Shown: positions 189 to 18,104 of the stretch, one piece after another
How the letters are laid out: each line of letters opens with the position of its first letter
Position numbering within the stretch: the first letter of the stretch is position 1
From: Candidatus Scalindua sp.
GTDB taxonomy: Bacteria > Planctomycetota > Brocadiia > Brocadiales > Scalinduaceae
DNA length: 32,000 bases
Assembly (NCBI GenBank): GCA_031316235.1
Contig: JALDRA010000001.1
Location: 1,200,001-1,232,000 of the forward strand
Direction of reading: 5' to 3'
Notes under the pieces: model-generated
Database searches by the model: none
What the model was told of the DNA's origin: nothing
What the model saw: only the letters and a program-made list of their open reading frames with translations
Program-made: the position numbers and the translations under genes

Positions 189-2312
189 CTACAGAATCAT
201 ATCGGCTTCAGTCTCTTTCCCGGAAGTCTTTAACCTGAAATCTTCCACCTCTTTTGTGAGAGCATCCTTCACGCGTTCTATCACTCCTTCCCATCCATCC
301 CGATGTGTCTGCCGAAACAAGCGCATACCAGGGTACCACTGACTCTCTTCACGTTTCAACATCCAGCGCCAATCAGGTGAAAATGGCAGTAATGTCCATA
401 CCGGTTTGCCGAGGGCACCAGCCAGATGTGCAACTGCGGTATCTACCGAAATCACAAGATCAAGATTTTCAATAACGGCTGCGGTATCTGCAAAGTCATG
501 CAACTCTTTTTCCAGATTATGGATTGTCATATTTTCCGGTGGATGCAATGCTTCAGCAGCAGCTCTACCTTTTTGAAGTGAATAGAAGGTCAATTCTGAA
601 ATCTCAGCTAACGGGGAAAAATCATTCAGCGTACAAGAACGATTGGAATAGACATAATTACGGGATGGACCGCCTGCCCAGACAATCCCAGTTTTAAAAG
701 AATTTTTATTGCTGCATATATTACCCCATTCAGCTGAAAGTCCGGGATCAACCTGAATATACGGCCCCCTTGAAGGTATAGTATCCAGTGTTGTTCCAAA
801 GATCCCCGGTAAGCTGAGGAGAGGCACTTGAAAATCGAACATTTCTGACAGCTCACCGGAAGAGTTCCGTGCTAAAATTTTATCAATACCTTCACAGCGC
901 CTTAAGAGAGATACCAGAGCCGGCTGGCATTCAAAAACCACATATCCACCTCGCGACTGAATCATTGGAAGATACCGTACAAATTGAATTGTATCACCGA
1001 AACCCTGTTCTGAATGCACAAGTACAGTCCTCTTGTTGAGCAAGGAACCGTTCCATCGTGGCTTCGGAAAGTTTCTGGAATTGTAACGTTCAGTCCGTAA
1101 TCGCCATTCATACTCCGGCCACCCCTCTTGATAGTTTCCCGACAAGAGCAACGCAATTGATTTATTCAGATGTGCCATGGCAAAGTCTGGCTTGAGAGCG
1201 ATTGCACGGTTACTGCTCGCAACGGCCTCTGCAAGTTTTCCCTGCTCCTGCAGTGCAGCACCAAGATTGCTGTATGCCTCCGCATAGTCCGGTTTCAGGT
1301 TCAGTGCTTTCTGGTAATTCCCGATTGCCTCTTCCAGCCTCCCCTGTTCCTGCAGTGCAGTACCCAGATTACCGTAAACAACTGCATTATCAGGTTCGAT
1401 TCCCACAGCCCTCACATAGTGAGCTACGGCTTCATCATACCTGCCCTGCCTCTTAAATGCATTCGCCAGATTATTATATGCTGCTACATAGTCTGATCTC
1501 AACGCCAATGCTTTCTGGTAATTCCCGATTGCCTCTTCCAGTCTGCCCTGTTCCTGCAGTGCGTCACCAAGATTACAAAAGGCTTCAGCATAGCCAGGCT
1601 CCCGTATGACAGCCTGTCTATAGTTTTTGATTGCCTCATCAAGCCGGTGCTGAGCCTTCAGCACATTTCCAAGATTATTGTACATTTTCCCATGGTCTGG
1701 TTTGATTTCAAGAACTCTTCTATAGATGTCTATTGCCTCATCTAATCTCCCCAATTCCTGAAGTATTGCGCCAAGATTACCACAGATTCCAACATTATCA
1801 GGATCAAGGGTCATTGCCACCTGATAGCTTCTCACTGCTTCATCCAGCATGTTTTCCTCTCTCAACACATTTGCAAGATTGGTATGTATTTCGGCATCAT
1901 GGGGACTGAGCAGCAATGCCTTCCGGTAATTCTTTATCGCCTCGCCAGATTTGCCCATTTTTTTGAGTGTATTGGCAAGGTTGTAATACCCTTCAGCATA
2001 GTCTGGATCAAGTGTAATTGCTTTTTGATAGCTTACGGTTGCCTCATGAAGTCTCCCTAATCCTTGAAGTGAAGAGCCAAGATTACCGTGGGCCTTACTA
2101 TAATCCGGTCTAAGCGCAAGTGTTTTTCGTAACAAGACAGATGCTGCATCAAAATTGCCTGACTGAAGGTTCAGTGTGCCAAGGAGAAAGAGAGTTTCAA
2201 TGTGCCCAGGTTCGATTTCCAGTATCTTGCGGTACGAGTGTGCCGCCGTAACCAAATCTCCGGCCTGATGGTGCTCAAGAGCACTCTGGAATAAACGGTT
2301 AATGGTGTCCAT
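189..2312 (-). CDS. TPR-repeat protein with C-terminal GT9 (heptosyltransferase-like) glycosyltransferase domain
   Basis: 707-aa ORF. The N-terminal ~380 aa are back-to-back 34-residue TPR units (recurring P.YAEAY.NLG..L...G+L.EA...Y.+AL). The C-terminal ~320 aa carry EQGFGDTIQFVRYLP, PLLSLPGIFGTT, NRSC.L.DF.PL, FYSLQKG and DTAVAHLAGALGKPVW. The last block resembles the nucleotide-sugar-binding end of GT9 GT-B enzymes. The start overlaps the upstream paralogue's stop by 14 nt. Confidence 0.85.
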   Translation of the reverse strand: MDTINRLFQSALEHHQAGDLVTAAHSYRKILEIEPGHIETLFLLGTLNLQSGNFDAASVLLRKTLALRPDYSKAHGNLGSSLQGLGRLHEATVSYQKAITLDPDYAEGYYNLANTLKKMGKSGEAIKNYRKALLLSPHDAEIHTNLANVLREENMLDEAVRSYQVAMTLDPDNVGICGNLGAILQELGRLDEAIDIYRRVLEIKPDHGKMYNNLGNVLKAQHRLDEAIKNYRQAVIREPGYAEAFCNLGDALQEQGRLEEAIGNYQKALALRSDYVAAYNNLANAFKRQGRYDEAVAHYVRAVGIEPDNAVVYGNLGTALQEQGRLEEAIGNYQKALNLKPDYAEAYSNLGAALQEQGKLAEAVASSNRAIALKPDFAMAHLNKSIALLLSGNYQEGWPEYEWRLRTERYNSRNFPKPRWNGSLLNKRTVLVHSEQGFGDTIQFVRYLPMIQSRGGYVVFECQPALVSLLRRCEGIDKILARNSSGELSEMFDFQVPLLSLPGIFGTTLDTIPSRGPYIQVDPGLSAEWGNICSNKNSFKTGIVWAGGPSRNYVYSNRSCTLNDFSPLAEISELTFYSLQKGRAAAEALHPPENMTIHNLEKELHDFADTAAVIENLDLVISVDTAVAHLAGALGKPVWTLLPFSPDWRWMLKREESQWYPGMRLFRQTHRDGWEGVIERVKDALTKEVEDFRLKTSGKETEADMIL

Positions 2313-4185
2313 TCGTTTCTCTCTGAAGTTTGTCTTGGAGCAGAGCTGCTTTTACCTGATCAAATACGCTTGCCCAGTCATGTAACGCTGTCTGCCGGAA
2401 CAGCCGCATATCAGGATACCATGGGCTGTCATGCCGGTTTAAAAACCAACGCCAGTCGGGTATGTAATGCAGCAGTACCCATACCTCTTTGCCAATAGCT
2501 CCTGCAAGATGAACAACTGCAGTATCTGTGGAAATGATGAGGTCCAGGTTGGTAATTACGGCTGCTGTCTCAGCAAAATCATTCAGCCTGTTTTCCAGGT
2601 TGACGATCTTCATCCCTTCCGGTGGCTGGAGTGTCTCATCTGAAGCGTTACCCTTTTGAAGACTGTAAAATGTTATTCCAGGAATATCCGCTAACGGTGA
2701 AAAATCAGCGAGGGAACAGGATCGATTACGGTTTTTAAACTTCGGGTTTCCGGACCAGACAATGCCAATCTTGAAGTTATCATCACTGTCAAGGTACCTG
2801 CGCCACTCCTCCGCAGGTTCAGGATCGACAGTAATATAAGGAACTCCGGAGGGTATTGTATCGGTAGTAGTGCCGAAGATTCCCGGCAGGCTCAAGAGGG
2901 GAACCTGGAGATCAAAAGGTATAGCACCATTACTGCGGGACGTACGTTCTACAATATTGTCAATACCTCTGCAATCTTTAAGCAGTCGATAGAGGTTCTG
3001 CCTGCACTCGAATATCACATGTCCCCCCAGCGACTGAACCATGGGCAGGTAACGGACAAATTGAATAGTGTCACCAAAACCCTGTTCTGAATGCACAAAG
3101 ATGTGCCTGCCATTCAACCGTTCACCCTCCCATTGAGGTTGCTGGAAGTCCCTCAGTCTATGATCCCTTGTGAGCAGTCTCCATTCATACTCAGCCCAGC
3201 CTTCCTTAAATTTTTCAGTTAAAAGAAGCACCGTAGCCCTGTTTTTATGTGCCGTTACCTCATCAGGCATAAGTTCTATCGCATGATCATAACTTTCCAT
3301 CGCTTCATCCAGTTGCCCAAGTTCCTGAAGTGCTGAACCAAGATTGCTGTACGCCATTGCATAATCCGGCTTCAGCTCTATCGCATGATCATAACTTTCC
3401 ACCGCCTCGTCAAGCTGCCCAAGTTCCTGAAGCGCGGAACCGAGATTGTTATATGCCATTGCATAATCCGGCTTCAGCTCTATCGCATGATCATAACTTT
3501 CCACCGCCTCGTCAAGCTGCCCAAGTTCCTGAAGTGCGGAACCGTGATTGTTATATGCCATTGCATAATCCGGCTTCAGCTCTATCGCATGATCATAACT
3601 TTCCACCGCCTCGTCAAGCTGCCCAAGTTCCTGAAGTGTGGAACCGAGATTGTTATATGCCATTGCATAATCCGGCTTCAGTTTGATTGCCTGCTTCTGG
3701 CACACAATTGCCTTATCGAATTTACCCTGCGCTTTAAACACGTTGCCAAGACTATAATGAACCAGAGCACACTCAGGTTTAAGAGCTATTGCTTTTTGAA
3801 AGCTATCTGCCGCCTCTTCAAGATTTCCTTTTGCCTGGAAAGCTGTTCCAAGGTTGTAATAAGCCTCGTCGTAATCAGGTTTCAGTTCAATTGCGTATTT
3901 AAACCGCTCTATGGCTTCATCAAGTTTTCCTTGCCCCTTCAGTGCTGTACCTATATTGTTGTGTGCGGCAGTATGTTCGGGTTTCTGTGCTATTACCTGG
4001 AGGAGAAACATGGTCGCCGTATCGAGATGCCCCTGTTGGAGATTAAGCGTTCCAAGAAAAAAAATGGTGTCAAGGTGTCCCGGATGTCTTCTGAGTACCT
4101 CCTTATAGAAGCTTGCTGCGCAGACAAGTTTACCAGACTGATGGAGCTTCAATGCTTTTTTAAATAAAATCTTACTGTTTACCAT
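2299..4185 (-). CDS. TPR-repeat protein with C-terminal GT9-like glycosyltransferase domain
   Basis: 628-aa ORF with the same architecture and the same C-terminal blocks (SEQGFGDTIQFVRYLPMVQ, PLLSLPGIFGTT, DTAVVHLAGAIGKEVW). It contains four nearly identical consecutive TPR units (ELKPDYAMAYNNLGSALQELGQLDEAVESYDHAI). Confidence 0.85.
   Translation of the reverse strand: MVNSKILFKKALKLHQSGKLVCAASFYKEVLRRHPGHLDTIFFLGTLNLQQGHLDTATMFLLQVIAQKPEHTAAHNNIGTALKGQGKLDEAIERFKYAIELKPDYDEAYYNLGTAFQAKGNLEEAADSFQKAIALKPECALVHYSLGNVFKAQGKFDKAIVCQKQAIKLKPDYAMAYNNLGSTLQELGQLDEAVESYDHAIELKPDYAMAYNNHGSALQELGQLDEAVESYDHAIELKPDYAMAYNNLGSALQELGQLDEAVESYDHAIELKPDYAMAYSNLGSALQELGQLDEAMESYDHAIELMPDEVTAHKNRATVLLLTEKFKEGWAEYEWRLLTRDHRLRDFQQPQWEGERLNGRHIFVHSEQGFGDTIQFVRYLPMVQSLGGHVIFECRQNLYRLLKDCRGIDNIVERTSRSNGAIPFDLQVPLLSLPGIFGTTTDTIPSGVPYITVDPEPAEEWRRYLDSDDNFKIGIVWSGNPKFKNRNRSCSLADFSPLADIPGITFYSLQKGNASDETLQPPEGMKIVNLENRLNDFAETAAVITNLDLIISTDTAVVHLAGAIGKEVWVLLHYIPDWRWFLNRHDSPWYPDMRLFRQTALHDWASVFDQVKAALLQDKLQRETNGHH
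3277..3684. repeat. Intragenic tandem repeat, 4 x 102 bp (one TPR unit per repeat)
   Basis: The motif tatcgcatgatcataactttcca recurs at 3277, 3379, 3481 and 3583, an exact 102-bp period. By hand alignment, units 2-4 differ from each other at only 2-4 of 102 positions. Unit 1 differs at roughly ten positions. Confidence 0.9.
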
Positions 4186-4230
4186 AAAAAAACCGATCGT
4201 ATTTTTCTTAAAATTTTTCAGTTATTTTAT

Positions 4231-5175
4231 TCAGTGAAATTCTTTGCTCCAGAAATCAATAAGCTCTCGCTGCTGTCTTTCAGAAGAATATTGAGCGGCC
4301 TTTGCCTGTGCTCCAGCCTTTATCTTTTCTACTGTTTTATCTTTCTTATTTATGAGACCAATTACGTGCCCCAGTGTTCTTGCACACTCGACAAGATTCC
4401 CCTCCTCACACCAGAACCCATTATCTCTGGATGCATATTCTAACCCCCCATCTCCATGAAAACCCACGACTACACAACCACATGCCATCGCCTCTATGGG
4501 AGGTAAACCCAACCCTTCGTAAATACTTGTCGAAAGAAATATTTCAGATTCACTTAGTATCTCCGCAACCTTCTCCTCATTCACGTTATCTATGCGGACC
4601 CAGGGTACCTGTTGATATTGTTTAAACAGAAAACGAAAGAGAGTCTTGATAAAATCCAGCTCTCCAGGCGTTTTTCTGGGCATATATGCTACCTGTAATT
4701 TTTTCTCACGCGGTTTGAAAATGTCTGAACACACCGCATTATGAATAACTGGAACTTCTCCGATTTCAAAAACTGACCGGATAAACCGGCTGATAATATC
4801 TGAACAGCAGAAGATCCTCGATATACCGTAGTCAGCCCACGATTTGCCATCTCTTATACCCTTGAAAATATAATAATGGTTCTGACAGAAGATATATTTT
4901 CTGGCCTGCACATCTCTGAATGCCCGAATTGCCGTTTTATTATCCTCAGGGATAACAACTATATCGTTTGGAGAAACCCGAAAACCGTTTTTAGCATAAA
5001 GTACCGGAACATTGGATTTCAACCAGGGAAGAGTAAAACCTTCATTAATATGAACTACAAATGAAGGAAACCCGTTCCTCACTAAATGGGAAACGTGCGA
5101 ATAGATCACTTTCACACCACCTGAAGGTTCAAGGCAATCGTGACAGATGTATAGGATTCTGCCGTTACTGTTCAT
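4231..5175 (-). CDS. Glycosyltransferase, GT-B fold, GT4/group-1 type
   Basis: 314-aa ORF. It has the N-terminal ILYICHD...PSGGVKV pattern and the C-terminal E-x7-E-type block LSTSIYEGLGLPPIEAMACGCVVVG typical of group-1 glycosyltransferases. It lies 45 nt upstream of, and co-directional with, the TPR/GT9 genes. Confidence 0.8.
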   Translation of the reverse strand: MNSNGRILYICHDCLEPSGGVKVIYSHVSHLVRNGFPSFVVHINEGFTLPWLKSNVPVLYAKNGFRVSPNDIVVIPEDNKTAIRAFRDVQARKYIFCQNHYYIFKGIRDGKSWADYGISRIFCCSDIISRFIRSVFEIGEVPVIHNAVCSDIFKPREKKLQVAYMPRKTPGELDFIKTLFRFLFKQYQQVPWVRIDNVNEEKVAEILSESEIFLSTSIYEGLGLPPIEAMACGCVVVGFHGDGGLEYASRDNGFWCEEGNLVECARTLGHVIGLINKKDKTVEKIKAGAQAKAAQYSSERQQRELIDFWSKEFH

Positions 5176-5407
5176 CTCAAATAGTTTATCCCATTACAAA
5201 TAAATTCAATATTTTTCTCAAGATACTCTTTTCAATGTCCTTCTCCTCACATAACTGCTGATTCATACTGCACGTTCGTGTTCAGCTTTCATCGATTCCA
5301 AAAAGCTTCCCAGAAAAGGAAAGAGGTACCGCCATGTGGTGAATACCATATCGACAATACAGAAAATGTTCCCCGGTTTTAAGGAAAGCATGAGATGTTC
5401 CCGCTCC

Positions 5408-5860
5408 CTATTTCACAACGAACTGATTATAATTTTTAACGGGAAGCGTATCTAAATCCCGGTTATACAGTAACTGCAGTGTCCCTTCAAAGACCCCTCC
5501 TTTTTTTATCACGAATCTGCGACAGGATATTTTGCCACAAAATTTACCATCTTCTAAAATTTTCACGGTACCGGAAGAGGAGAGATGCCCTTTAAACTCG
5601 CCTCCAATGACAGCATTTCCAACAAATAATCGTGAGACTTCCAGCCGATGGTACTTCTCTAAATAGAAATCACTATGTTTTATCGGATCAGTATCTTTTC
5701 CCGGATCTACCCTCTTATAACTGAGATCAATCTGCCCTTTGCAGTGACGACACGGAAACGATACACAATGGCCTGGTACAGAAATGAGTCCCTGGCAATA
5801 TGGGCAGGAGATATCTTTTGCCCTTATATTGGCAGCAACAGGAGTCGCAAGATTATACAA
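5408..5860 (-). CDS. Small protein with N-terminal zinc ribbon and a C-terminal bactofilin-like (polymer-forming cytoskeletal) segment
   Basis: 150-aa ORF with a TTG start at 5860 and AAAGGGGA about 10 nt upstream. Two Cys pairs (CPYCQG...CRHCKG) suggest a Zn ribbon. The C-terminal half, VGNAVIGGEFKGHLSSSGTVKILEDGKFCGKISCRRFVIKKGGVFEGTL, has the short repetitive G-x-hydrophobic beta-helix rhythm of bactofilin domains. It covers only about 60 aa, so the family call is tentative. Confidence 0.45.
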   Translation of the reverse strand: MYNLATPVAANIRAKDISCPYCQGLISVPGHCVSFPCRHCKGQIDLSYKRVDPGKDTDPIKHSDFYLEKYHRLEVSRLFVGNAVIGGEFKGHLSSSGTVKILEDGKFCGKISCRRFVIKKGGVFEGTLQLLYNRDLDTLPVKNYNQFVVK

Positions 5861-5945
5861 ACTTCTGACATCCCCTTTCCTGAATTAAAAAAATACGCAA
5901 TAAGAGAAAACTCGTACGTTAACGGGAACACCGTAGACGAACGAA

Positions 5946-7013
5946 CTAAAACCTGAAAGGTATCAGGGACAGAAGTGTTTCTACAACTTTTCTGAAATAG
6001 GTATTCCTTACATACCTCCAATCTTCCCCATTATCCCGGTTTTCAGATGTTGAAAGATTATGGATAATAGGTAACCCTCGTAATCCTTTTTCCATATTCA
6101 TAGCGTGTGTCCTTCCCGAAGCCTCACCACCGGGCATAACATCTGTAGCAAGATCCAGCACAACCTGGGCGTTATCAAAAATCCTGGTTGTTGCCTTTCT
6201 GCCGATCTTATGATTTCCAATCGTAGCATCAGGTATCGTCTCCAGAGTATTTAATCCGGCAAACAAAAGATCCTCTCCCACATTGATCACACTTCTGGGT
6301 ACCCCCTTCACCACATCTCCCAGTATTGCATCTTTAAAGATTTTTCCAAAAAAATGTTTTATTCTTTCAATTCCACCTTGCGGAGCCACTTCACTTGCAG
6401 GAGTATAGGAGCCAAATGTTAATCCGCTTGCAATATTCTTAAAGAAATGCACCATGGTCTTCGCAAAACCGACCTTTCTCGCCTCTTTTATCTCTCCGCG
6501 ATTATTTACATAGTTAAATTTCGCGCCAATTCCAACATCTTTAGCTGCATTCAAAAGATTTCCACCCGCATCCTTTAAATCCTTCCCTACCCTTTTCGCA
6601 AACGAACTATGGTCAAAATTGTTGCTGACCACACCGGTAGTCTTGTCAATGAAGTAATCGTCTCCACCTGGATTTGATAGCAACTGGTCCTCCTTGTAAA
6701 TCTTATACTGCTGGAGAACTGCTGACTTTGGAAGTTTTCCTATCCCCTTAGGTGATACATATGTTTCCGGATATTGATTCGCCGTGGTTTTCTCTGAAGG
6801 TCTTACCCCGTCTCCTTCCGGCTGAAATATCATCATTTTCTGTTTTTGCCGGTTAAACTGCTTTATACCTTTTAACTCATTATTAAGAAATATATCAAAC
6901 TGATGCAGATCTGCTCTCTCCAGAGTCTCACGGTTTGTTACGGTATTCTTATTAATTGTATTGGGAGATCGTTTGACAGAAACCTTTGAGTTACTCATAT
7001 CTGGAGTATCCAT
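5946..7013 (-). CDS. Hypothetical protein, no recognisable domain (orphan)
   Basis: Long stop-free frame. The track starts it at TTG 7031. I prefer ATG 7013 (MDTPDMSNSK...), and ATG 6998 is also possible. None of these has a convincing SD. There is no signal peptide or TM segment by eye. The N-terminal ~100 aa are polar and low-complexity, and the rest is G/K/D-rich. It sits 85 nt upstream of, and co-directional with, 5408-5860. Confidence 0.6.
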   Translation of the reverse strand: MDTPDMSNSKVSVKRSPNTINKNTVTNRETLERADLHQFDIFLNNELKGIKQFNRQKQKMMIFQPEGDGVRPSEKTTANQYPETYVSPKGIGKLPKSAVLQQYKIYKEDQLLSNPGGDDYFIDKTTGVVSNNFDHSSFAKRVGKDLKDAGGNLLNAAKDVGIGAKFNYVNNRGEIKEARKVGFAKTMVHFFKNIASGLTFGSYTPASEVAPQGGIERIKHFFGKIFKDAILGDVVKGVPRSVINVGEDLLFAGLNTLETIPDATIGNHKIGRKATTRIFDNAQVVLDLATDVMPGGEASGRTHAMNMEKGLRGLPIIHNLSTSENRDNGEDWRYVRNTYFRKVVETLLSLIPFRF

Positions 7014-7031
7014 AGTGCAAGAAACTCGCAA

Positions 7032-7599
7032 AAGAAATACCTAACTGAAAAAAATCGATTAGAGAAGAAAAACAAGCACCTAAGTATCTATAAATTCTAT
7101 CTTTACAACAGCACAACCTTATTTAGCCAACTTGAAACCATAAAGAGTACAACTTTTAAAATGTAGAAAAAAACAACTTGTATCAGGAAAAAGCTTACCT
7201 ATAAAAGAATCGTGAACTCAGCACAAACAGACAACAACACGTTTGCTTTTTAGCAGAAACTCATCCTCACATCGTCAAAACAGAATCAATAAAAATAAAT
7301 ACTATTTTTGTAAAAAATAAGTAAAAAAGCTTGATTTATCATTACAAGTATATAAAATGTATACTTTTTGAAGTCCATTTCTTTCCATAGAAACACCCTG
7401 ATACGTTAAAATTTACGACACACAAGTTTTTTAAAACGTTGTTTTCTTATTGAAAATGATAATTGCTTTTCAAGTTACCTGCCTCCATTTTTACAAAAGA
7501 AACTAGTTTCTACAAAATAACCTTGTTGATTCTGTACGTAAAAAAGCAAAAAACTTCTTCTGTTATCAGTAAATTAAACCTCTTTAAGGTGTGAATTGT
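7032..7599. promoter_or_regulatory. Unusually long, very AT-rich divergent intergenic region (putative shared promoter/regulatory region)
   Basis: About 560 bp with no credible ORF and many A/T tracts, lying between divergently oriented genes (7013 minus, 7600 plus). I could not place a convincing -35/-10 pair by eye, so only the region is called. Confidence 0.4.
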
Positions 7600-8367
7600 A
7601 TGGCAAATCGCAACAGCAAAAAAAAGTCGGGCAGTAATCTTCAGAGTTTTCTCAAAAAAAATTCGTCACAGCTTCAACACGCTGGAAGACAAAGAGAACA
7701 GGCTGAAAAAGAGATAACGTTAAAGAAAAAAAGGCGTCTTGAAAAAAAAACATTGTTAGATTCCGTAATGAAAAAACCAGCGGAAACTGCTGGCTCCATT
7801 GCGATACAGAATTTTGTTGAAACCTTTTCAAATGCTGATACCACTTTGAAAGAAACAACATTCAGGAAAACCAGTAATGAAGAAAAGGATACCCTGGTAG
7901 ACTTTCTTGAGATGAAATCATCACGACAAACACAGATTTTTCAAGAACGTGCCCACGCTGAACCGGAACATGAGAAGCTTCCTGCTGTAAAGAGCCAACC
8001 GACTGGAAAACCATTTGATGACTCAGAAAAAGAGCAGTCTGAAATAAAGGAGAGTCTAAAGAAATGGATTCAGGAACTCATGAATAAGACCCTGGAAGAG
8101 CAGAAGAAGTGGACAAAAGGCGCGATTACCGATATCAAAAAAGAACTGATCCTGAGTGAAAAAAATCAAAAGAAAATAATGAATGAGTTGATAAAAGGTG
8201 TTGTGGAAGAATATATGCAGCCTGTCAAAAATTCGAAGATTGCGGGTTCGGAAAGGGGGGTAACGAAGAGCGAAGAGGAACCAAAAAGGTCGGTTATCAG
8301 GAAGAACGTAAAGAAATCGGTACCACAAGTGGAAAAAGAGAAGATCGCAAAAAACCAACAACATTGA
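7600..8367 (+). CDS. Highly charged K/E-rich low-complexity protein, probably disordered or coiled-coil
   Basis: The track starts at GTG 7591. I prefer ATG 7600, with AAGGTG at 7586-7591. By hand count there are about 44 K and 32 E in 255 aa. The N-terminus is basic (NSKKKSG, LKKKRRLEKK) and there are no TM segments. It ends 58 nt before the actin-like gene on the same strand. Confidence 0.7.
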   Translation: MANRNSKKKSGSNLQSFLKKNSSQLQHAGRQREQAEKEITLKKKRRLEKKTLLDSVMKKPAETAGSIAIQNFVETFSNADTTLKETTFRKTSNEEKDTLVDFLEMKSSRQTQIFQERAHAEPEHEKLPAVKSQPTGKPFDDSEKEQSEIKESLKKWIQELMNKTLEEQKKWTKGAITDIKKELILSEKNQKKIMNELIKGVVEEYMQPVKNSKIAGSERGVTKSEEEPKRSVIRKNVKKSVPQVEKEKIAKNQQH

Positions 8368-8425
8368 GTAAAAAAGTGCGCTAAAAAAGAAAAAGAGATA
8401 ACCCCTTACGTGGAGGAATTTAGTC

Positions 8426-9475
8426 ATGACAAAAGCTCAAAGCACATCAGAATCAAACTTTATCGTTGGAATAGATCTGGGAACATCACGTTCCGCTATT
8501 GTTACAGAAAACGGGGTAAAGGGAGTAGTAGAATCTATCGTTGGATGGCCGCAGGATATTATTGGTCTCAAGGTGCTGGGAAACTCTATTGCAATTGGTG
8601 ACACCGCACTGGAATTTCGAGAATTCCTGGAGATCAGTTATCCATTGGCAAACGGAGTTATCAAAGAAGGGGTTAAGAGGGACGTTGAAGCCGCTGATGA
8701 ACTTATTAAATATATCCTTTCCCTGGCAGAAATTCCCGAGAAAAAGAAAATATGCGGGATCGTTGGGGTTCCAGCCAAAGCCTCTCTGCAAAGCAAACAA
8801 GTCTTATTGAATCTAACAAAGAAGCATATGAGCCAGGTAACACTCATCAGTGAACCATTCGCTATCGCCTATAGAGAAGAAAGACTGAATAATTCAATTA
8901 TCATTGATCTTGGGGCCGGTACAATAAATTTTTGTACTATGAAAGGAAGAATCCCTGATGAGAACAGCCAGGTCTCCCTGGAAAAAGCAGGAAATTATGT
9001 TGATACCATCTTGTTTGATGCTTTGAAGCGCAAATTTCCTGATGCTCAACTGACCCTGAATATTGTAAAAAAATTCAAAGAAAAACATGGTACCATACTA
9101 AGCGGTGGTGGTAATATCATGGTTGAACTCCGAATGCATGGCAAACCGCAGACTCTCGATATTACTGAGGAAATGATCAACGCCTGTTCGACATTTGTAC
9201 CCAACATGATTGAGGAAATCAAAAAACTGGTCGTCAGCTTTGACCCAGAATCCCAGGAGGAGGCCATGAAAAATATCATACTGGCAGGCGGTATGAGCAA
9301 AATAAAAGGATATGATTCCGTGATCAAAGAAGCTTTATCTGATTATGGGGATGCACAGGTTCACGCTTTAGAAGATCCTTTATATGCAGTTGCTGAAGGC
9401 GCTTTAAAGATTGGAACCGATATACCGGTAAAATACTGGTCCCAGTTAGGTGAAACAGTCGCTGTGGGAAAATAA
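8426..9475 (+). CDS. Actin-like ATPase of the MamK family (MamK-like filament protein)
   Basis: 349 aa, with GGAGG at 8412-8416, 9 nt before the ATG. Actin-fold motifs are present: VGIDLGTSRSA (phosphate 1), GVPAKAS, ISEPFAIAY, IIIDLGAGTINF (phosphate 2) and ILAGGMSKIKG (adenosine). Block-by-block it resembles my recollection of Magnetospirillum MamK: SIVGWPQDIIGLKVLG vs VVGYPKDVIGLKLLG, ISYPLANGV vs IRYPLQDGV, EKAGNYVD vs TKAGNYVD, PVKYWSQLGE vs PPQYWRQLGD. Confidence 0.8.
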   Translation: MTKAQSTSESNFIVGIDLGTSRSAIVTENGVKGVVESIVGWPQDIIGLKVLGNSIAIGDTALEFREFLEISYPLANGVIKEGVKRDVEAADELIKYILSLAEIPEKKKICGIVGVPAKASLQSKQVLLNLTKKHMSQVTLISEPFAIAYREERLNNSIIIDLGAGTINFCTMKGRIPDENSQVSLEKAGNYVDTILFDALKRKFPDAQLTLNIVKKFKEKHGTILSGGGNIMVELRMHGKPQTLDITEEMINACSTFVPNMIEEIKKLVVSFDPESQEEAMKNIILAGGMSKIKGYDSVIKEALSDYGDAQVHALEDPLYAVAEGALKIGTDIPVKYWSQLGETVAVGK

Positions 9476-9535
9476 AGAGAAAAAAGAGTGAAATATCAGC
9501 CGGTAACCCTTATCCCCCAAAAAAAAGAATACGGG

Positions 9536-11503
9536 TTACAGGAGACCATGTAATCTCCTCCTCACCTGTCGAAATACTCCCAGCCAGTCTTTGGGGTGAG
9601 AATGACGAAATAACCGCATAGTTGGATACCAGGGGCTTCCATCCCGGTCTTGCAGCCAGCGCCAGGCTGGTGCAAATGGCAACAGGTTCCAAACAGGTTT
9701 GCCCATTGCCCCTGCTAAGTGGACGATTACTGTATCGATTGATATAACAAGGTCAAGGTTGGCAATCACTGCTGCCGTATCAACAAAGTCTCTGAGTTCT
9801 CTTTCCAGGTTAACGATATCCATACCCTCTGGAATAGTAGATGCTTCCGCTGCAGCTGCCCCTTTTTGAAGTGTGTAAAAAGTTATATTCGGGATGTCTC
9901 TCAGGATGGCAAAATCCTGTAATGAGCAGGAGCGGTTGCGGTCGTTTGCATTCCTGGGGTTGCCAGACCATGCAATACCAATTCTGAGGTTATTATTCCT
10001 GCCAAGCCTCATACCCCATTTCATGCGAAGGGCAGCATCAACCTTGATATAGGGTATATCAGCAGGTACGGTTTCAAGGGTAGTTCCATAAATTCCCGGC
10101 AGACTTAAGAGGGAAATGTGAACATCAAATGGCACAGAAGGTTTACAGGTCGGAACATATTCTACAAACTCGTCAATCCCTGAACAGCCGCTTAATAATC
10201 GAATGAGCTCTTTCTGGCACTCGAGAATAACCCGGCCGCCCCGTTCCTTCACCATGGGCAGATAGCGTGCAAACTGGATCGTATCACCGAATCCCTGCTC
10301 CACATGTATCAATATTGATCTGCCATTAAGGGGTAAGCCATCCCACAAGGGTTTTCCCAGTGTCTTGGGAATATGTTCACGTATCTGAAGCCTCCACTCA
10401 TACTCCTGCCAGCCATCTTTAAAATTCCCTGCCAGGAGGAGTGCAAGTGAGTTATTCATGTGTGCCAGTGCATAATCAGATTTCAGTGATATCGCCTTTT
10501 TATAACTTTTTATCGCCTCGTCAAGACTCCCTGTTTCCTGAAGAGAAGTGCCGAGATTATTGTGTGCTTCTGCGTAGTCAGGGCTGACCTCGATTGCCCG
10601 ATTACAGCTCTCTATCGATGTATCCAGTTTGCCAAGTTCCCTCCATACCGTACCAAGATTGCTGTAGGCCATAGCGTAGTCTGGTTTAAGTTCTATCGCC
10701 AGATTATAACTGGCCACAGCTTTATGAAGTTCTTTCTTTTCGAGAAATACCGTACCAAGATTATTATGGGCCTCTGCATAATCAGGTTTTAAAGTTATAG
10801 CATTACGATAACACTCTTCCGCCTCGTCAAATCTTCCCAGTCTCTTCAATACTGTCCCGAGATTATTTTGGAGGACCTCATTGTCCGGTTCGAGTTGCTT
10901 TGCCTTCAGGCTGCTCTTTAACGCTTCGTTTAAGAGCCCAGATTCCTGAAAAGCCATGCCAAGGTTACTGTGTGCCAGTGCATAATCCGGTTTGAGGTCC
11001 AATGCACTGCGATAGCAGAAGATTGCATCATCCATCCGCCCCATTTTGTGAAATACTGCTCCGAGATTACAATGTAATTCTGCACTATCCGGATTGTATC
11101 TCATCGCATACCGGTAACTTATAACGGCATTACCGAATTTTCCCTGTTCCCGATAGATATCCCCTAAGTTACTACGGACTTTTGGATCCTCTGGTATTAA
11201 GAGACACGCACGATGATAACACTCCTCAGCTTTTTCCAGTTGTCCCAGCTCTTGAAGTGCAGTACCAAGATTATTATACGCCATTGCATGATCAGGCTTT
11301 AGTGCCAGAACATTTCTCAGTAATTGACAGGCCGTCTCAATATCATGTTGCTGGAGATGGAGTGTACCTAAGAGAAAGAGTGCATCAATGTTTTCAGATT
11401 GCTTTTCTAATATAGCCTTATACGAAGCTGCCGCCGATTCAAGGTTTCCCGTCTGATGCTGCTGTATGGCACCCTCAATCAAGTTTATTACCGGAGTATT
11501 CAT
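9536..11503 (-). CDS. TPR-repeat protein with C-terminal GT9-like glycosyltransferase domain
   Basis: 655-aa ORF. It has a TPR array followed by VEQGFGDTIQFARYLPMVK, SLLSLPGIYGTT, NRSCSLQDF, FYTLQKG and DTVIVHLAGAMGKPVW. Its start lies 4 nt after the stop of the upstream paralogue. Confidence 0.85.
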   Translation of the reverse strand: MNTPVINLIEGAIQQHQTGNLESAAASYKAILEKQSENIDALFLLGTLHLQQHDIETACQLLRNVLALKPDHAMAYNNLGTALQELGQLEKAEECYHRACLLIPEDPKVRSNLGDIYREQGKFGNAVISYRYAMRYNPDSAELHCNLGAVFHKMGRMDDAIFCYRSALDLKPDYALAHSNLGMAFQESGLLNEALKSSLKAKQLEPDNEVLQNNLGTVLKRLGRFDEAEECYRNAITLKPDYAEAHNNLGTVFLEKKELHKAVASYNLAIELKPDYAMAYSNLGTVWRELGKLDTSIESCNRAIEVSPDYAEAHNNLGTSLQETGSLDEAIKSYKKAISLKSDYALAHMNNSLALLLAGNFKDGWQEYEWRLQIREHIPKTLGKPLWDGLPLNGRSILIHVEQGFGDTIQFARYLPMVKERGGRVILECQKELIRLLSGCSGIDEFVEYVPTCKPSVPFDVHISLLSLPGIYGTTLETVPADIPYIKVDAALRMKWGMRLGRNNNLRIGIAWSGNPRNANDRNRSCSLQDFAILRDIPNITFYTLQKGAAAAEASTIPEGMDIVNLERELRDFVDTAAVIANLDLVISIDTVIVHLAGAMGKPVWNLLPFAPAWRWLQDRDGSPWYPTMRLFRHSHPKDWLGVFRQVRRRLHGLL

Positions 11504-11507
11504 AAAT

Positions 11508-13619
11508 TTATTTCCCAGACAAACACGTTGATGAACCAGATTGCTTCAGCCTGGCTATCTCTTGTATCAACGCCTCGGTTATCTCTTCAAACACAGAAGT
11601 CCAGTCATCTGGTTCCGGCTGCCGAAACAACCTCATGCTCGGATACCATGGACTATCCTCACGGCCAATCAACCAGCGCCAATCTGGATCAAACTGCAGG
11701 AGAGTCCACACCGGTTTGCCGATAGCACCAGCGAGGTGAGCAACTGCAGTATCAACAGAGATAACGAGATCCAGATGAGCAATAACCGCTGCAGTCTCAG
11801 CAAAATCAGGCAACTGATTTTCAAGATTGTTGAGTTTCATATTTCTCGGTGGGGTAAGAGCCTGCCCTGATGCTGTTCCCTTTTGAAGAGTGTAGAAAGA
11901 GACACCCGGAACATCTGCCAGGGGTGCAAAATCATCCAGAAAACATGAGCGGATACGGTCTTTCCTGTTATGAGGATTCCCGGCCCAGACCAGGCCAATT
12001 TTGAAATTACGGTCGTGAACAAACCTTGCACCCCAGCGTCTTACAAGATCCGGATCCAAAGAAATATATGGTATACCTGAGGGTATGGTCTCTGTTTGAG
12101 TACCAAACAGCCCTGGAAGACTTAAGAGGGGAATATGAAAATCAAATTGTTCCGTTATTATACCGGTGGAAGTTCTTTCCACAAGCCTATCGATACCGGG
12201 ACAATTTTTTAAGAGACTAATAAGGCTCTGCCTACACTCAAAAATCATATACCCGCCTCTCTCCTTTACCAGAGGGAGAAAACGGACGAACTGTATCGTA
12301 TCACCATATCCCTGTTCAGCATGAACGAGGATAGATTTCCCCTCAAGAGATGAACCGTCCCATTTTGGCTGTTTAAATGCTCTCAATCCATGGTCACTCG
12401 TCTGCAGTCTCCACTCATATTCAGACCACCCCTCTACAAAGTCTTCGTTCATCAGTAATATAAAGGCCTTGTTCATGTGTGCCTCAGCAAAGTCAGGTTT
12501 CTGGAAGATAGCCTTTTTATAGTTTATGATTGCCTCATCAAGTCTCCCCATTCTTTGCAGTAATGCACCCATGTTATTATAGAAATAAGCACTGACGGGT
12601 TTAAGATAAATTGCCCTTTGACAACATTCCAGAGCAGCATCATTTCTCCCCTGATCTTTCAATGCCATACCGAGATTGCTGTAAGCCACAGCATGTTTAT
12701 GATTGAGTTTTATTGCCTGTTCGTAACAGGAAACTGCTTCCTCAAGTCTGCCCTGTTCGTAAAAGCATGTCCCCAGAGTGTTATGTGCCTCCACGTAGTC
12801 CGGTTTTATTGTAATAGCACGACAGCAACATTCAACAGCCTCATCAAGTCTCCGCTCTTCCTTAAGCAATGAGCCAAGATTCGTATGGGCTTTAACATTA
12901 TCGGGTTCAATTTGTAATGCATTCGCATAACTCTCGATTGCCTTTTCACGTTTACCCTGTTCCTGAAGTACCAACCCGAGATTGATATGCGCTTCAGCAT
13001 AATCAGGTTTTAATTCCAATGCCCGACGGCAGCACTCCTCAGCTTTATCGAATAGCTGTTTATCTTTTAGTGCCACAGCCATGTTGCTGTATGCCACAGG
13101 CTGATCTGGTTTTAATTGTATTGCTTTTCTGTAGCACTCAATAGCCTCGCTGCACCTCCCTTGCTCCTGCAGTACTGCTCCCATATTGATGTAGGCTTCG
13201 AAATAGTCCGGTTTCTGAGACAGTGCTTCCTTATAGCTTTCCAGGGCACTATCTAATCTGCCCTGTAAGTGGTAAAGGGACGCAAGATTACTGTGTGCAC
13301 TTACATAAGCCGGATTAAGTTCTATTGCCCTCTTGTAACTTTCAATAGCCTTCTCGTATTCACCCTGCTGTTTCTGAATAGTACCGAGATAATTATACGC
13401 GGTTAAATGCACTGGGTTTACTAACAACGTCTTTTGAATATATTCTGAAGCCCTATCAAGATTTTCCTGTTGCAGATAGAGAATACCCAGGAGACAGATT
13501 ACGTCAATTTGTCCAGACTCATTTTTGAGCAGCTTGTGGTACAGTGATGCTGCAGCGGGAAGATTACCTGCTTCATGCTCATTCAATGCCATTTGCAATA
13601 CGCTGTTAATATTTTCCAT
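11508..13619 (-). CDS. TPR-repeat protein with C-terminal GT9-like glycosyltransferase domain
   Basis: 703-aa ORF. It has a TPR array followed by AEQGYGDTIQFVRFLPLVK, PLLSLPGLFGTQ, IRSCFLDDF, FYTLQKG and DTAVAHLAGAIGKPVW. Confidence 0.85.
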   Translation of the reverse strand: MENINSVLQMALNEHEAGNLPAAASLYHKLLKNESGQIDVICLLGILYLQQENLDRASEYIQKTLLVNPVHLTAYNYLGTIQKQQGEYEKAIESYKRAIELNPAYVSAHSNLASLYHLQGRLDSALESYKEALSQKPDYFEAYINMGAVLQEQGRCSEAIECYRKAIQLKPDQPVAYSNMAVALKDKQLFDKAEECCRRALELKPDYAEAHINLGLVLQEQGKREKAIESYANALQIEPDNVKAHTNLGSLLKEERRLDEAVECCCRAITIKPDYVEAHNTLGTCFYEQGRLEEAVSCYEQAIKLNHKHAVAYSNLGMALKDQGRNDAALECCQRAIYLKPVSAYFYNNMGALLQRMGRLDEAIINYKKAIFQKPDFAEAHMNKAFILLMNEDFVEGWSEYEWRLQTSDHGLRAFKQPKWDGSSLEGKSILVHAEQGYGDTIQFVRFLPLVKERGGYMIFECRQSLISLLKNCPGIDRLVERTSTGIITEQFDFHIPLLSLPGLFGTQTETIPSGIPYISLDPDLVRRWGARFVHDRNFKIGLVWAGNPHNRKDRIRSCFLDDFAPLADVPGVSFYTLQKGTASGQALTPPRNMKLNNLENQLPDFAETAAVIAHLDLVISVDTAVAHLAGAIGKPVWTLLQFDPDWRWLIGREDSPWYPSMRLFRQPEPDDWTSVFEEITEALIQEIARLKQSGSSTCLSGK

Positions 13620-13952
13620 GAGTCGTCTTTGTTGGCCATGGTTCAGTCACAGGGTTTCCGTTCAATCACTGCTTATTAATTCCGCTAAAAACATGCCAAA
13701 ATACATTTTGGCCTAAAATTTGTATACTAATAAGAGAACCATGGTACTGTGAGCTCTCCCTGTTCATATTCTGGCCATTCCTGTATAATTCTTCACCATG
13801 GCAATTACCTGGAATATTTATGAAATACGATACATCAGGAATCAGTTCAAAAGATAAGAGATTCAGATGGGGAATAAAAGCTATTCGTATTCAGTAATCT
13901 GCTCTCACCACAACCTGGAATATCCCCTTTCGAAAATGCAATAATTGAAGAG

Positions 13953-14291
13953 ATGAGAGAATATACTTCACCATTAAAGGCAGGCTATCATTCGAAATAC
14001 GATGATGAACCACGCAGAGATCTTATGCAGCTTATCAGGGTCCTCCCTGAACGGGTTTTGATTGGTTGTGGCACAGGTGCAACCGGAGCCGCATTGAAAC
14101 AGAAGTTTTATGGAGTTGAATACACTGGATTTGAATCCAAAGAGAATATTGCACACATTGCGCGGAGACGTCTGGACACGGTTCTTACTGCGGACATAGA
14201 AAAAGTGCAGTTACACGACTGTGGATTGAACAGGGGATATTTCGACTTAATCATATGGAGTGATGTCCTTGAGCATCTTTATGATCCCTGA
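13953..14291 (+). pseudogene. Class I SAM-dependent methyltransferase, 3'-truncated remnant
   Basis: The 112-aa ORF has a degenerate motif I (RVLIGCGTGATG, lacking the usual acidic residue) and the motif DLIIWSDVLEHLYDP. It then stops where such enzymes normally continue for roughly another 80-100 aa. A MITE copy begins 25 nt downstream. I saw no continuation in any frame after the MITE. Confidence 0.55.
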
Positions 14292-14315
14292 TACAAATCA
14301 GCAGCATTATCATAA

Positions 14316-14428
14316 TATACTCATCTCATACTGGATTTCGGATAAAATCCGAGACAAAATTGAGCGAGTATAACTGTGACCAAGATTTGGTTTCCGGTAA
14401 ATCCGAAAACCAAATCGGTTTTAATATA
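14316..14428 (+). mobile_element. MITE-like repeat, family 1, copy A (113-bp form)
   Basis: tatactcatctcatactggatttcggataaaatccgagacaaaattgagcgagta...ccgaaaaccaaatcggttttaatata. It shares ends and an internal core with five other copies in the window. Confidence 0.85.
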
Positions 14429-16982: not shown

Positions 16983-18104
16983 TTAAGACTGAAGGCAAAC
17001 TGCAGCATTTTCTTCAACAGCATCTTCCCTTTTAATAGAACAGCTTGACAACCCTACCAGTACCGAATCAATCAGGTAACCAAACTTATAGTTGTTGCCA
17101 GGCACAAGGTCAAGTGAGAGCGTATGGTCTCCGTTTCTCTCTTTTTTCATGGGATTACAGTGTGAATTCCAATTGTTAAAATCACCGACAATATAGACAC
17201 TCATTGCCTTTGAAGCCGCAAACCTCGGCAGTCTGAACGTTACCCTGCGCAACATTTCTTTTTGTGAAAACAGTCCTGCCTGATCGTACCCTTCCTCAGC
17301 CCGATCTGTAATCCTCTCACTACAACTGCTTACCATTTCAGTGTGCTCATCACCTATGACCACATCCTGAGCAATTCCATTTGTACCAGCGTCCCTTTCT
17401 GACATTGTCTCAGAGTGAGTATTTCTCATCTCGATATTTTTGATAGTTTTTTCACGATCTTCCTTTTTACTGAGAATACCGGAACACCCCTGACAGAATA
17501 ATTTCCCATAATGTTCCCTTGCAGAACCTGTTGCTGTATCTCTGGTAGAGATGCTTTTATTACAGCTGCAACACACCTTCATTTCTGCGAGATCTTCCTG
17601 TTGCAGACCTGAAGTGTTTTCCTGTAATGGTTCTGCAGCTACGTCACGTCTTTTCATAAAATTAACCATTTTCACGAATTTATAAAAAGAGAAATTCTTT
17701 TTTTTCGATTTCCTGCTTAAGATTTCTTCGATAGTCACCTTTAGCTCTTCCTTACTTTCTGCACTGATCTCTATAAACTCTATTGCAGTACAGTACCCTG
17801 AAAGATGCTGGCGTTCTTCAATCCGAACTATCCTCCCTACACAGCTTATGTGAGGCATGGATTGAGTAATTCCAAATTTAACATGTAAAATTGAATCAAT
17901 TCCCAGGTCCTTATAATAGGTAAAAACCATGCCACCTGCGCTCAGATTCTTTACGGCAACTATATCCCATTCAGGAGACCGGTTATCGTTGTCTTTGGAT
18001 TGCCTGGTATGAAACCTTGCTATACAGGGGGTTTCAATTTCTTTATATTTTCTGTTTTCCAGTTCTATTCTTGCATATTTCCTTTTTTCGGGAAGACTGT
18101 ACAT
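16983..18104 (-). CDS. PilZ-domain protein with central Cys-rich (Zn-ribbon-like) region and C-terminal CBM48/AMPK-beta-type carbohydrate-binding domain
   Basis: The PilZ signature pair is present: RKYAR (RxxxR) near the N-terminus and NLSAGG (D/NxSxxG) about 50 aa later. The central region reads CCSC...CQGC. The C-terminus, VYIVGDFNNWNSH...LSLDLVPGNNYKFGYLID, matches the glycogen-binding-domain pattern V+..G.FNNW...L..G.+.YKF.VDG. Confidence 0.75.
   Translation of the reverse strand: MYSLPEKRKYARIELENRKYKEIETPCIARFHTRQSKDNDNRSPEWDIVAVKNLSAGGMVFTYYKDLGIDSILHVKFGITQSMPHISCVGRIVRIEERQHLSGYCTAIEFIEISAESKEELKVTIEEILSRKSKKKNFSFYKFVKMVNFMKRRDVAAEPLQENTSGLQQEDLAEMKVCCSCNKSISTRDTATGSAREHYGKLFCQGCSGILSKKEDREKTIKNIEMRNTHSETMSERDAGTNGIAQDVVIGDEHTEMVSSCSERITDRAEEGYDQAGLFSQKEMLRRVTFRLPRFAASKAMSVYIVGDFNNWNSHCNPMKKERNGDHTLSLDLVPGNNYKFGYLIDSVLVGLSSCSIKREDAVEENAAVCLQS

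Follow-up and report, generated by a model that had tools for sequence, protein, structure and literature searches.

We analysed a 32,000-nucleotide (nt) stretch of DNA of Candidatus Scalindua sp. (GenBank assembly GCA_031316235.1, contig JALDRA010000001.1, positions 1,200,001 to 1,232,000), hereafter called the window, which encodes an actin-like protein of the MamK family. Our results indicate, with a probability that we put at roughly 0.7, that this mamK gene is functional and that, together with the open reading frame (ORF) directly upstream of it, it constitutes a two-gene remnant, or an escaped copy, of an ancestral mamAB-type magnetosome gene cluster of Scalindua. This cluster appears to be still complete in Candidatus Scalindua sediminis, and none is detectable in the host of the window. 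A preliminary description, made from the letters of the window, had recognized the MamK-like actin and had missed that the ORF just upstream (7600-8367) is a diverged magnetosome-cluster gene. Given the full island in a sister species, the subject shifts from a MamK-like actin of unknown origin to the remnant of a magnetosome cluster. The two genes concerned are:

7600..8367, + strand: partner ORF; 255 amino acids (aa), lysine/glutamate-rich, soluble; the mechanically called ORF begins with GTG at 7591
8426..9475, + strand: mamK (orphan); 349 aa, MamK-family actin-like ATPase; ATG start

Identification of the MamK protein

The mamK ORF is preceded by a GGAGG ribosome-binding site, placed 8 nt 5′ of it. 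Its product scored 424.5 bits against the NCBIfam MamK model NF040964 (cut-off 400), with an alignment that covers positions 2-333 of the 335 of the profile. Among the controls for this model, the MamK of Magnetospirillum magneticum AMB-1 reached 547 bits and the cluster-encoded MamKs of Nitrospinota and Ca. S. sediminis 404-413 bits, i.e. the score of the window protein equals or exceeds those of the cluster-encoded MamKs of the same clade. Comparison with PDB sequences gave approximately 291 bits (E ~1e-85) for the AMB-1 MamK entries 5LJW, 5JYG and 5LJV, 131.6 bits for 8R2N, a protein of the BeeR family (confirmed by its score of 591.6 bits with the BeeR model), and 48 bits for MreB. The alignment with the PDB MamK links residues 3-344 of both proteins without a single gap, at 38.9% identity.

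The four MamK blocks that the preliminary description had named are all present in the translation and align without gaps with their AMB-1 counterparts: (i) GWPQDIIGLKVLG in the window protein versus GYPKDVIGLKLLG in AMB-1 MamK, (ii) SYPLANGV versus RYPLQDGV, (iii) KAGNYVD, identical in both, and (iv) YWSQLGE versus YWRQLGD. The actin-fold motifs that it had reported for this ORF were also found, with the phosphate-loop and catalytic positions all kept. Residues D17, G19, T20, E143, D161, G163, G165, T166, K218, G288 and G289 of the ATP site are retained in every orphan MamK; E143 and D161 are residues that we take to be important for ATPase activity. The neighbourhood of the ATP site deviates in one substitution, D168N (codon 168, window 8927-8929). 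The 47 other MamKs sampled, and also BeeR, all have D at the affected position, which follows the GxGTT phosphate-2 loop, and MreB has E. Almost all MamKs of Scalindua have N there, whether orphan or cluster-encoded (including that of L016); P0003 retains D. The orphan-type MamK additionally carries T167I. Residue 168 aligns with H161 of actin, and N168 might therefore tune ATP hydrolysis.

An alternative assignment is a generic actin of the MreB, ParM or BeeR type, involved in shape determination or DNA segregation. The NCBI label of a protein 100% identical to the window MamK (P0122, "rod shape-determining protein [Candidatus Scalindua sp.]") speaks for it, as does Pfam, which offers only MreB_Mbl (PF06723; 65.6 bits, cut-off 27). 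The Pfam match, however, reflects the shared actin/MreB superfamily alone, as Pfam holds no nearer model. The more specific scores argue against a generic actin: BeeR (NF053558), the second-best family, reached 194.9 bits against a cut-off of 530, and the MreB models NF010539 and TIGR00904 gave 63.8 and 49.9 bits (cut-offs 293 and 365.75). The remaining actin-fold families (ParM/Alp, FtsA, PilM, crenactin and salactin) scored at most 36 bits, with the Alp7A, FtsA and PilM matches under their own cut-offs; Mad28 and saltatorellin were left out of this comparison. A segregation system of the ParM/Alp type was rejected, given that the locus has no plasmid, phage, ParR or centromere context. The family scores effectively refute the generic-actin assignment. 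NCBI labels the window protein and its Scalindua orthologues either "rod shape-determining protein" or "hypothetical protein", although the window protein exceeds NCBI's own MamK cut-off.

The check that the preliminary description had proposed, against MamK, MreB, ParM, FtsA and Alp, thus ranked MamK first, and in the tree described below the protein does not fall within MreB or another actin family. Membership of the MamK family was borne out by the curated hidden Markov model cut-off, the PDB comparison and the phylogeny, so that by every sequence-based criterion the window gene is a bona fide member of this family.

Sequences identical or closely related to the window are present in public data. 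P0122 is encoded on a contig of 4,149,782 bp (proteins MDR4504157.1/MEZ6155164.1, MRK01_ locus tags), and the source of the window is accordingly an anammox planctomycete of the marine type. Logan contig L001 is identical to window positions 3652-14341, and MamK orthologues sharing 76-91% identity occur in other Ca. Scalindua metagenome-assembled genomes (MAGs), including that of sp. AMX11, and in one "Planctomycetes bacterium". A metagenome-contig search with the window MamK as the sole query gave no match; the relatives of the Scalindua clade derive from NCBI, ENA and Logan, not from JGI.

Phylogeny and ancestral context

A neighbour-joining (NJ) tree of 57 sequences (338 columns, 200 bootstraps, rooted with MreB) united all Scalindua MamKs in one clade (bootstrap 100). 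This clade divides into an orphan subclade of five proteins (bootstrap 100) and a cluster-encoded subclade, comprising the MamK of S. sediminis, P0005 and P0128. Its sister group consists of cluster-encoded MamKs of Nitrospinota (bootstrap 84). The MamKs of Magnetococcales, Alphaproteobacteria (AMB-1) and Desulfobulbaceae branch deeper, and BeeR and MreB lie outside the family. Beyond the Scalindua group MamK identity falls to 52-57%, and the named sequences in this range are those of Nitrospinota.

Every outgroup MamK with a readable context is encoded in a canonical mamAB-type cluster, in the order MamI, MamE, an unannotated protein, MamK, MamF/MmsF, small proteins, MamM, MamN (CitMHS), MamO (trypsin and TauE), MamP (magnetochrome), MamA, MamQ (LemA), MamR and MamB. 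P0128, a representative of the MamK group with 70% identity, also has a mamAB-type context (L014). The cluster context therefore flanks the orphan clade on both sides, and by parsimony it is ancestral, the context of bactofilin and tetratricopeptide repeat (TPR) genes seen in the window being derived.

Magnetosome cluster binned to Ca. Scalindua sediminis

When the MamM of L014 was used as a query, the sole close match (90%) was a protein of Ca. S. sediminis. A complete mamAB-type cluster is present on a 27-28 kb contig binned to this species (L015:3595-18352; L016, which is VSDH01000034.1 of NCBI assembly GCA_008636105.1; L017). Its genes encode, in order, MamI, MamE, a 624-aa acidic repeat protein, MamK, MamF, MamM, MamN, MamO, MamP, MamA, MamQ, MamR, MamB and a 194-aa protein. 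For each of the cluster proteins the best NCBIfam match is the corresponding Mam model, and MamI, MamK and MamB exceed the cut-offs. The MamB of this cluster is already named as such by PGAP. The cluster-encoded MamK (L016:7715-8761) is 69% identical to that of the window.

It may be argued that the mamJ-like/mamK pair alone was gained horizontally, and that the S. sediminis contig was mis-binned and Scalindua never possessed a cluster. We consider this unlikely. The contig is indeed short, with flanks that resemble a phage or an island (P63C, HTH), the gene order and sequences of the cluster are nearest to those of Nitrospinota, and similar binning methods can repeat one error. Against this, proteins of the cluster are filed under accessions of two separately deposited MAGs (MBO12252xx of Ca. 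S. sediminis and HDY677xx of Ca. Scalindua sp.), and the flank genes recur in a third (MEE96057xx), with fragments in the Loki's Castle LCGC14 sediment metagenome. The G+C content of the contig (36.7%) equals that of a locus of S. japonica (37.0%), and the cluster MamK is sister (bootstrap 100) to MamKs encoded on megabase Scalindua contigs. The right end of the contig, moreover, bears a fragment of a TPR-GT9 fusion of the family that flanks the orphan mamK.

This fragment (L015/L016:18671-19090, near the contig end) encodes a 139-aa N-terminal portion that is 48-54% identical to the TPR N-termini flanking the orphan locus; its best match is the one adjoining the group-1 glycosyltransferase (GT1) gene. 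It may hint at a shared neighbourhood of the cluster and the orphan locus, or may just reflect a multi-copy family.

In sediments of the Arctic Mid-Ocean Ridge, Ca. S. sediminis is a dominant anammox bacterium, and it has so far been reported from marine sediments only (PMC7768721). The string "magnet" is absent from that paper and occurs in PMC10060263 in one reference title only. A literature search returned no paper that relevantly connects MamK or magnetosome genes with Scalindua, Brocadiales or anammox, a provisional result, as most subscription-journal papers lie outside its coverage. The complete magnetosome cluster of S. sediminis is apparently unreported.

The ORF upstream of mamK

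The likely start of the partner ORF is the ATG at 7600 ("MANRNSKK..."), which matches that of its orthologues. It is separated from mamK by 58 nt on the same strand, and the two genes are probably co-transcribed. A gene of the partner type is located upstream of mamK at every Scalindua orphan locus seen (L002, L003 and L012). In the cluster loci L005, L007, L009, L014 and L016, mamK is likewise immediately preceded by a gene of the same orientation, which we refer to as the MamJ-position gene. Neither the partner nor the cluster-type MamJ-position proteins have any match in Pfam or NCBIfam, and the partner family has four representatives among 1.84 billion proteins.

Several comparisons link the partner to the cluster-type proteins. 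In a BLASTP alignment with the 624-aa protein of Ca. S. sediminis (E 2e-5), it shares 35% identity over 95 residues (31-123 versus 22-113), including the (D/E)FLE motif of the basic N-terminal module (KDTLVDFLE/KKTIKDFLE). None of 500 global and none of 500 local (20-residue) shuffles reached the real score, and the three orphan-type proteins gave z values of 4.1-5.6. The comparison of five orphan-type with five cluster-type sequences by hhalign yielded a probability of 95.3% (E 2.3e-8, 70 columns). An earlier profile comparison with few sequences had given a probability of 19%, and it was the S. sediminis protein together with further family members that made the link clear. Direct BLASTP of the partner against the upstream proteins of L014 and L005 was not significant.

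The two types of protein differ outside this N-terminal module. All six cluster-type proteins possess a glycine-rich, hydrophobic C-terminal segment (maximum 19-residue Kyte-Doolittle hydropathy of 1.56-2.28), which is a putative membrane anchor. No such segment was found in the partner, whose maximum 19-residue hydropathy is 0.44 (at most 0.71 in all orphan-type partners). Long acidic repeats are present in the MamJ-position proteins of S. sediminis and L014 and not in the window partner; orphan-type partners are basic (net charge +16 to +31, +16 for that of the window) and non-repetitive. The partner has thus been shown to keep the N-terminal module of the MamJ-position protein of the cluster, without its acidic repeats and hydrophobic segment. 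Judged from these features, the window preserves a two-gene module of the magnetosome cluster from which the predicted membrane-reaching part of the adaptor has been removed.

The S. sediminis cluster contains a second, 194-aa paralogue of the MamJ-position protein, encoded after mamB (L015/L016:17768-18352), which has a basic N-terminus and a hydrophobic C-terminal segment and no acidic repeats.

Search for a cluster in the source lineage

The preliminary description had stated that no magnetosome genes lie within the 32 kb, and for the classical Mam genes this agrees with Pfam and NCBIfam scans of all large ORFs and with phmmer searches using all 19 proteins of the S. sediminis cluster contig. 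The latter, run against the six-frame ORFs of the window and of two syntenic Scalindua loci (L002 and L012; 74 kb), retrieved only MamK, the upstream ORF as a weak match, and TPR similarity of a generic kind. By both approaches, no Mam gene besides MamK and the diverged partner was found in the window, L002 or L012.

A search with the closest cluster-encoded MamM as the query, performed on a word-indexed database, detected no orthologue from the orphan-bearing Scalindua lineages. The matches comprised the S. sediminis-type orthologues and one relative (90-100%), followed by sequences with 52-56% identity, including known cluster contigs of the Nitrospinota type. Nothing was retrieved from the 2.28-, 2.37- and 4.15-Mb orphan-carrying Scalindua contigs, all of which are present in the database. 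A MamM orthologue should share about 60-70% identity and head the list of matches, so its absence is good, although not conclusive, evidence that these lineages lack a cluster.

These data bear on the possibility that the source is a magnetotactic organism with a full cluster elsewhere in its genome, the window copy being an accessory, off-island second MamK. A congeneric species does appear to carry a complete cluster, and the orphan and cluster copies form sister clades, as a duplication would also produce. The MamM search nevertheless makes such a paralogue improbable, given that 2.3-4.1-Mb contigs of the orphan lineages were covered; in addition, no orphan-type copy from the Ca. S. sediminis MAG is found among the named cluster members, and the searchable literature holds no magnetosome report for Scalindua. 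We likewise know of no such report.

Of the two alternatives left by the preliminary description, an off-island paralogue of a magnetotactic organism or a MamK-like filament of a non-magnetosome purpose, the evidence favours the second insofar as a MamK filament protein is encoded by an organism without a detectable magnetosome cluster; the non-magnetosome function is what we infer. The gene had also been said to be unsurprising should a full island exist in the same genome. The MamM search points to no such island there, and the full island is found in the sister species instead.

Selection on the locus

Ratios of nonsynonymous to synonymous substitution rates (dN/dS) were calculated for pairs of window genes and their orthologues, with the method of Nei and Gojobori. 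For mamK the values are 0.049 versus L002 (dS 0.90) and 0.114 versus L012 (dS 0.84). Those of the neighbouring genes are 0.07-0.10 (GT1), 0.13-0.16 (TPR-GT9 fusions), 0.17-0.25 (a gene for a 350-aa protein), 0.26-0.43 (bactofilin) and 0.32-0.48 (partner). The orphan mamK is therefore under strong purifying selection and is the most constrained gene of the block, with the lowest dN.

The orphan subclade differs from all cluster copies of the clade by five fixed changes (D29N, V112I, A171T, V237M and H244L), and four are found reciprocally. With so few fixed substitutions, neither decay nor a burst of change is evident in the orphan MamK. The filament protein looks unchanged; it is the adaptor and the genomic company that have changed. 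A comparison of the cluster-encoded mamK genes of L016 and L014 gave a dN/dS of 0.41 at a dS of 0.29, a low value that makes the estimate unreliable; constraint may be tighter on the orphan mamK than on its cluster counterpart.

A decaying partner-mamK leftover without a present role is very improbable in the light of these values. Such a relic would suit the partner, a fast-evolving protein (dN/dS 0.32-0.48; 43-57% identical from species to species) of which two out of three regions have been lost. It does not suit mamK, with its dN/dS of 0.05-0.11 at a dS of about 0.8-1.2 and its reading frame intact in at least five lineages (76-91% identical), with the catalytic residues all kept.

Gene neighbourhood

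The features surrounding the partner-mamK pair are listed below.

189..4185 (within): two TPR+GT9-like fusions of the same glycosylation island as those listed last
4231..5175, - strand: group-1 glycosyltransferase (GT1); Pfam Glycos_transf_1, 47 bits; part of the conserved syntenic block
5408..5860, - strand: Zn-ribbon/bactofilin protein, 150 aa; N-terminal CxxC...CxxC zinc-ribbon-like motif and partial bactofilin (Pfam 35.5 bits, cut-off 27.9)
5946..6998, - strand: 350-aa conserved hypothetical protein; syntenic neighbour; the mechanically called ORF reaches TTG at 7031
7032..7599: intergenic, presumed promoter region; about 33% G+C, AT-rich; between the 350-aa gene (-) and partner/mamK (+)
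9536..11503 and 11508..13619, - strand: two TPR+GT9-like fusions, convergent with mamK; TPR Pfam matches

The local block thus consists of the GT1, Zn-ribbon/bactofilin and 350-aa genes on the - strand, the divergent partner and mamK genes on the + strand, and then the convergent TPR-GT9 genes. The same block is found in three further loci, L002 (MamK 91% identical to that of the window) and L012/L013 (80%), with the position of the bactofilin gene kept in L002 and L012/L013; in L003 (MamK 84%) a partner gene is located upstream of mamK. The linkage of the bactofilin, 350-aa and GT1 genes to mamK is kept only among close relatives, whose MamKs are 80-91% identical. Scans for promoter and terminator consensus sequences around the pair, sigma-70-like promoters included, gave nothing above shuffle expectation, and no tRNA, integration scar or non-TPR repeats were found in its flanks.

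The 350-aa protein is 100% identical to P0253, encoded on the same contig as P0122, and has no Pfam or NCBIfam match. We detected 321 homologues, and all named ones are of Brocadiales (Scalindua, Kuenenia KsCSTR_43690 and Brocadiaceae). The family has many invariant residues and represents an anammox-specific conserved protein; an AlphaFold2 model based on a 56-sequence alignment (mean pLDDT 48.8, pTM 0.34) was too poor for use. As its members are found in every anammox family, in a variety of gene contexts, we claim no functional link to mamK. Its copy in S. japonica lies beside che genes, without mamK or bactofilin. This locus was rejected as an "empty site", because its unrelated che context shows that it is not a syntenic orthologue, and it is silent on insertion. 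The 350-aa and bactofilin genes were also rejected as candidate magnetosome-cluster genes, since phmmer against all ORFs of five cluster loci and BLASTP were negative.

Most of the window is a glycosylation island, which contains the four TPR-GT9 fusions, several GT1, GT2 and GT1_2 glycosyltransferases and methyltransferases, as well as a formyltransferase, a B12/radical-SAM enzyme, a GFO/IDH oxidoreductase, and Usp, Uma2 and ISL3 transposase genes. The four TPR proteins (630-710 aa) were considered as candidates for MamA and rejected: they are fusions with a C-terminal Glyco_transf_9 domain (22-30 bits, cut-off 22), and with the MamA model they score 155 bits, below the cut-off of 200.

Further genes noted in the window are (i) a methyltransferase of 112 aa (13953-14291, +), whose counterparts are of 253 aa in L002 and 295 aa in L012, and which may be truncated or frameshifted, (ii) a protein of 373 aa (16983-18104, -) with the uncommon pairing of PilZ (c-di-GMP-binding) and a CBM48/AMPK-type glycogen-binding module, and (iii) the B12-binding radical-SAM enzyme of the glycosylation/methylation island (18344-19633, -), whose matches below the threshold include HpnJ-like proteins and TIGR04072, a model for B12-binding/radical-SAM proteins of lipid biosynthesis (121 bits, cut-off 360). 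A Uma2 endonuclease (26108-26728), a 662-aa choice-of-anchor Q protein (27215-29203) and the ISL3 transposase (29246-30487) are encoded approximately 17-20 kb from mamK, too distant to be implicated in moving the pair.

Comparison with known systems

The window protein shares with Magnetospirillum MamK, compared by sequence alone, the family, the length, E143, D161, both phosphate loops and the family-specific blocks. It differs in D168N and T167I, in the location of its gene outside a magnetosome cluster, and in its host, an anammox planctomycete without detectable MamM. Its nearest relatives are the cluster copies of S. sediminis (69%) and Nitrospinota (54-57%), both with a homologous gene directly upstream. 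In these two, mamK has the MamJ-position gene on one side and a mamF/mmsF-like gene (PF09685, weak match) on the other, in mamI...mamB operons; the mamK of the window is instead placed between the bactofilin/glycosyltransferase block and the TPR-GT9 genes, and its partner lacks the hydrophobic C-terminal segment.

M. magneticum AMB-1 encodes a second MamK-like actin outside the magnetosome island, and both actins are reported to cooperate on magnetosome chains. This is the nearest precedent for an off-island paralogue, and the off-cluster location resembles that of the window mamK; AMB-1, however, retains a full island, and none is detectable for the window. In Magnetospirillum, magnetosomes are connected with MamK through MamJ, an adaptor that is acidic and repetitive. 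The cluster-type upstream proteins are likened to it by position and composition only: they occupy the mamJ position, and those of S. sediminis and L014 are acidic and repetitive. The partner encoded in the window, in contrast to MamJ, is basic and non-repetitive and lacks the hydrophobic segment. BeeR (8R2N), the second-best family, lies outside the MamK family in the tree, and the window protein scores far under the BeeR cut-off.

Saltatorellin, a MamK-like actin of the non-magnetotactic, planctomycete-related Saltatorellota, has been shown to form filaments and is reported to branch near MamK as a separate family (bioRxiv 10.1101/817700). The window protein is placed inside the cluster-encoded MamK radiation and over the MamK cut-off; it is set apart from saltatorellin by the description of the latter, not by its sequence. 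The phototroph Rhodovastum atsumiense, not known to be magnetotactic, is reported to carry silent magnetosome clusters (PMC9938234), a case that bears on the S. sediminis cluster. There a whole cluster was acquired horizontally, in contrast to the two-gene remnant of the window. The gene mamK has served as a marker for magnetotactic bacteria (bioRxiv 10.1101/682252), and MamK homologues outside these bacteria are acknowledged in the same source, citing Lefevre 2013. Published magnetosome clusters of Planctomycetota have been described as of the Fe3S4 type, or of an Fe3O4 type that groups with Omnitrophota, and Brocadiales are not mentioned there.

Proposed role and significance

Judging from its strictly conserved nucleotide-binding and catalytic residues and its 39% ungapped identity to a MamK of solved structure, the window protein would bind and hydrolyse ATP and polymerize into actin-like filaments of the MamK type. 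By analogy with MamJ and MamK, the N-terminal module of the partner may contact this filament, and the lost hydrophobic segment may be what ties the cluster-type protein to the magnetosome membrane. With this segment lost, the filament would no longer be coupled to magnetosomes and would serve another cargo or scaffold. Candidate cargoes, on which we can speculate, are the anammoxosome or its contents, or a polar or envelope assembly involving the neighbouring bactofilin.

Several points weigh against a remnant or escaped copy that has remained functional. The homology of the partner spans only the N-terminal ~80-120 residues and is not significant at database scale. The absence of a cluster was judged from one gene (mamM) in a word-indexed search and from 32 kb of sequence, not from a full-genome scan. 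The gene may be a relocated orthologue or an old paralogue of the cluster copy; no genome has been seen with both copies, although the MAGs are incomplete. The phylogeny is of the NJ type only, with a bootstrap of 84 at the Scalindua-Nitrospinota node and weak deeper nodes (40-51). The cluster contig was attributed to Scalindua by metagenome binning, though the cluster itself is present in no fewer than two separately deposited MAGs. Finally, filament formation, expression and cargo are argued from the genes.

The mamK of the window is no distant cousin of the magnetosome genes: it falls within the cluster-encoded radiation and travels with a recognizable fragment of a cluster neighbour. This placement, the score over the MamK cut-off and the neighbour fragment together make the remnant an unusually clean and datable example of a gene of an organelle system outliving its organelle. 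One practical consequence is that marine surveys would score the orphan mamK of Scalindua as a true mamK. The S. sediminis cluster, if real and expressed, has implications for the magnetism of sediments, for the cycling of iron and for the way in which anammox cells locate the nitrate-ammonium transition zone.

To our knowledge, no positioning or segregation machinery has been assigned to the anammoxosome, the membrane-bound organelle of anammox bacteria. A cytomotive actin that is conserved, strongly constrained and limited to some members of a single anammox genus offers a concrete candidate for this role. A wider scenario, which we put forward tentatively and regard as doubtful, is that Scalindua descends from, or once included, magnetosome formers; S. 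sediminis may make magnetosomes beside its anammoxosome, and other species would have lost the organelle and re-used the actin and a stripped-down adaptor for another structure, most attractively the anammoxosome or its contents. If true, this re-use would be the first in which a magnetosome cytoskeleton serves a different organelle of a prokaryote, and it would also be the first to connect anammox with magnetotaxis.

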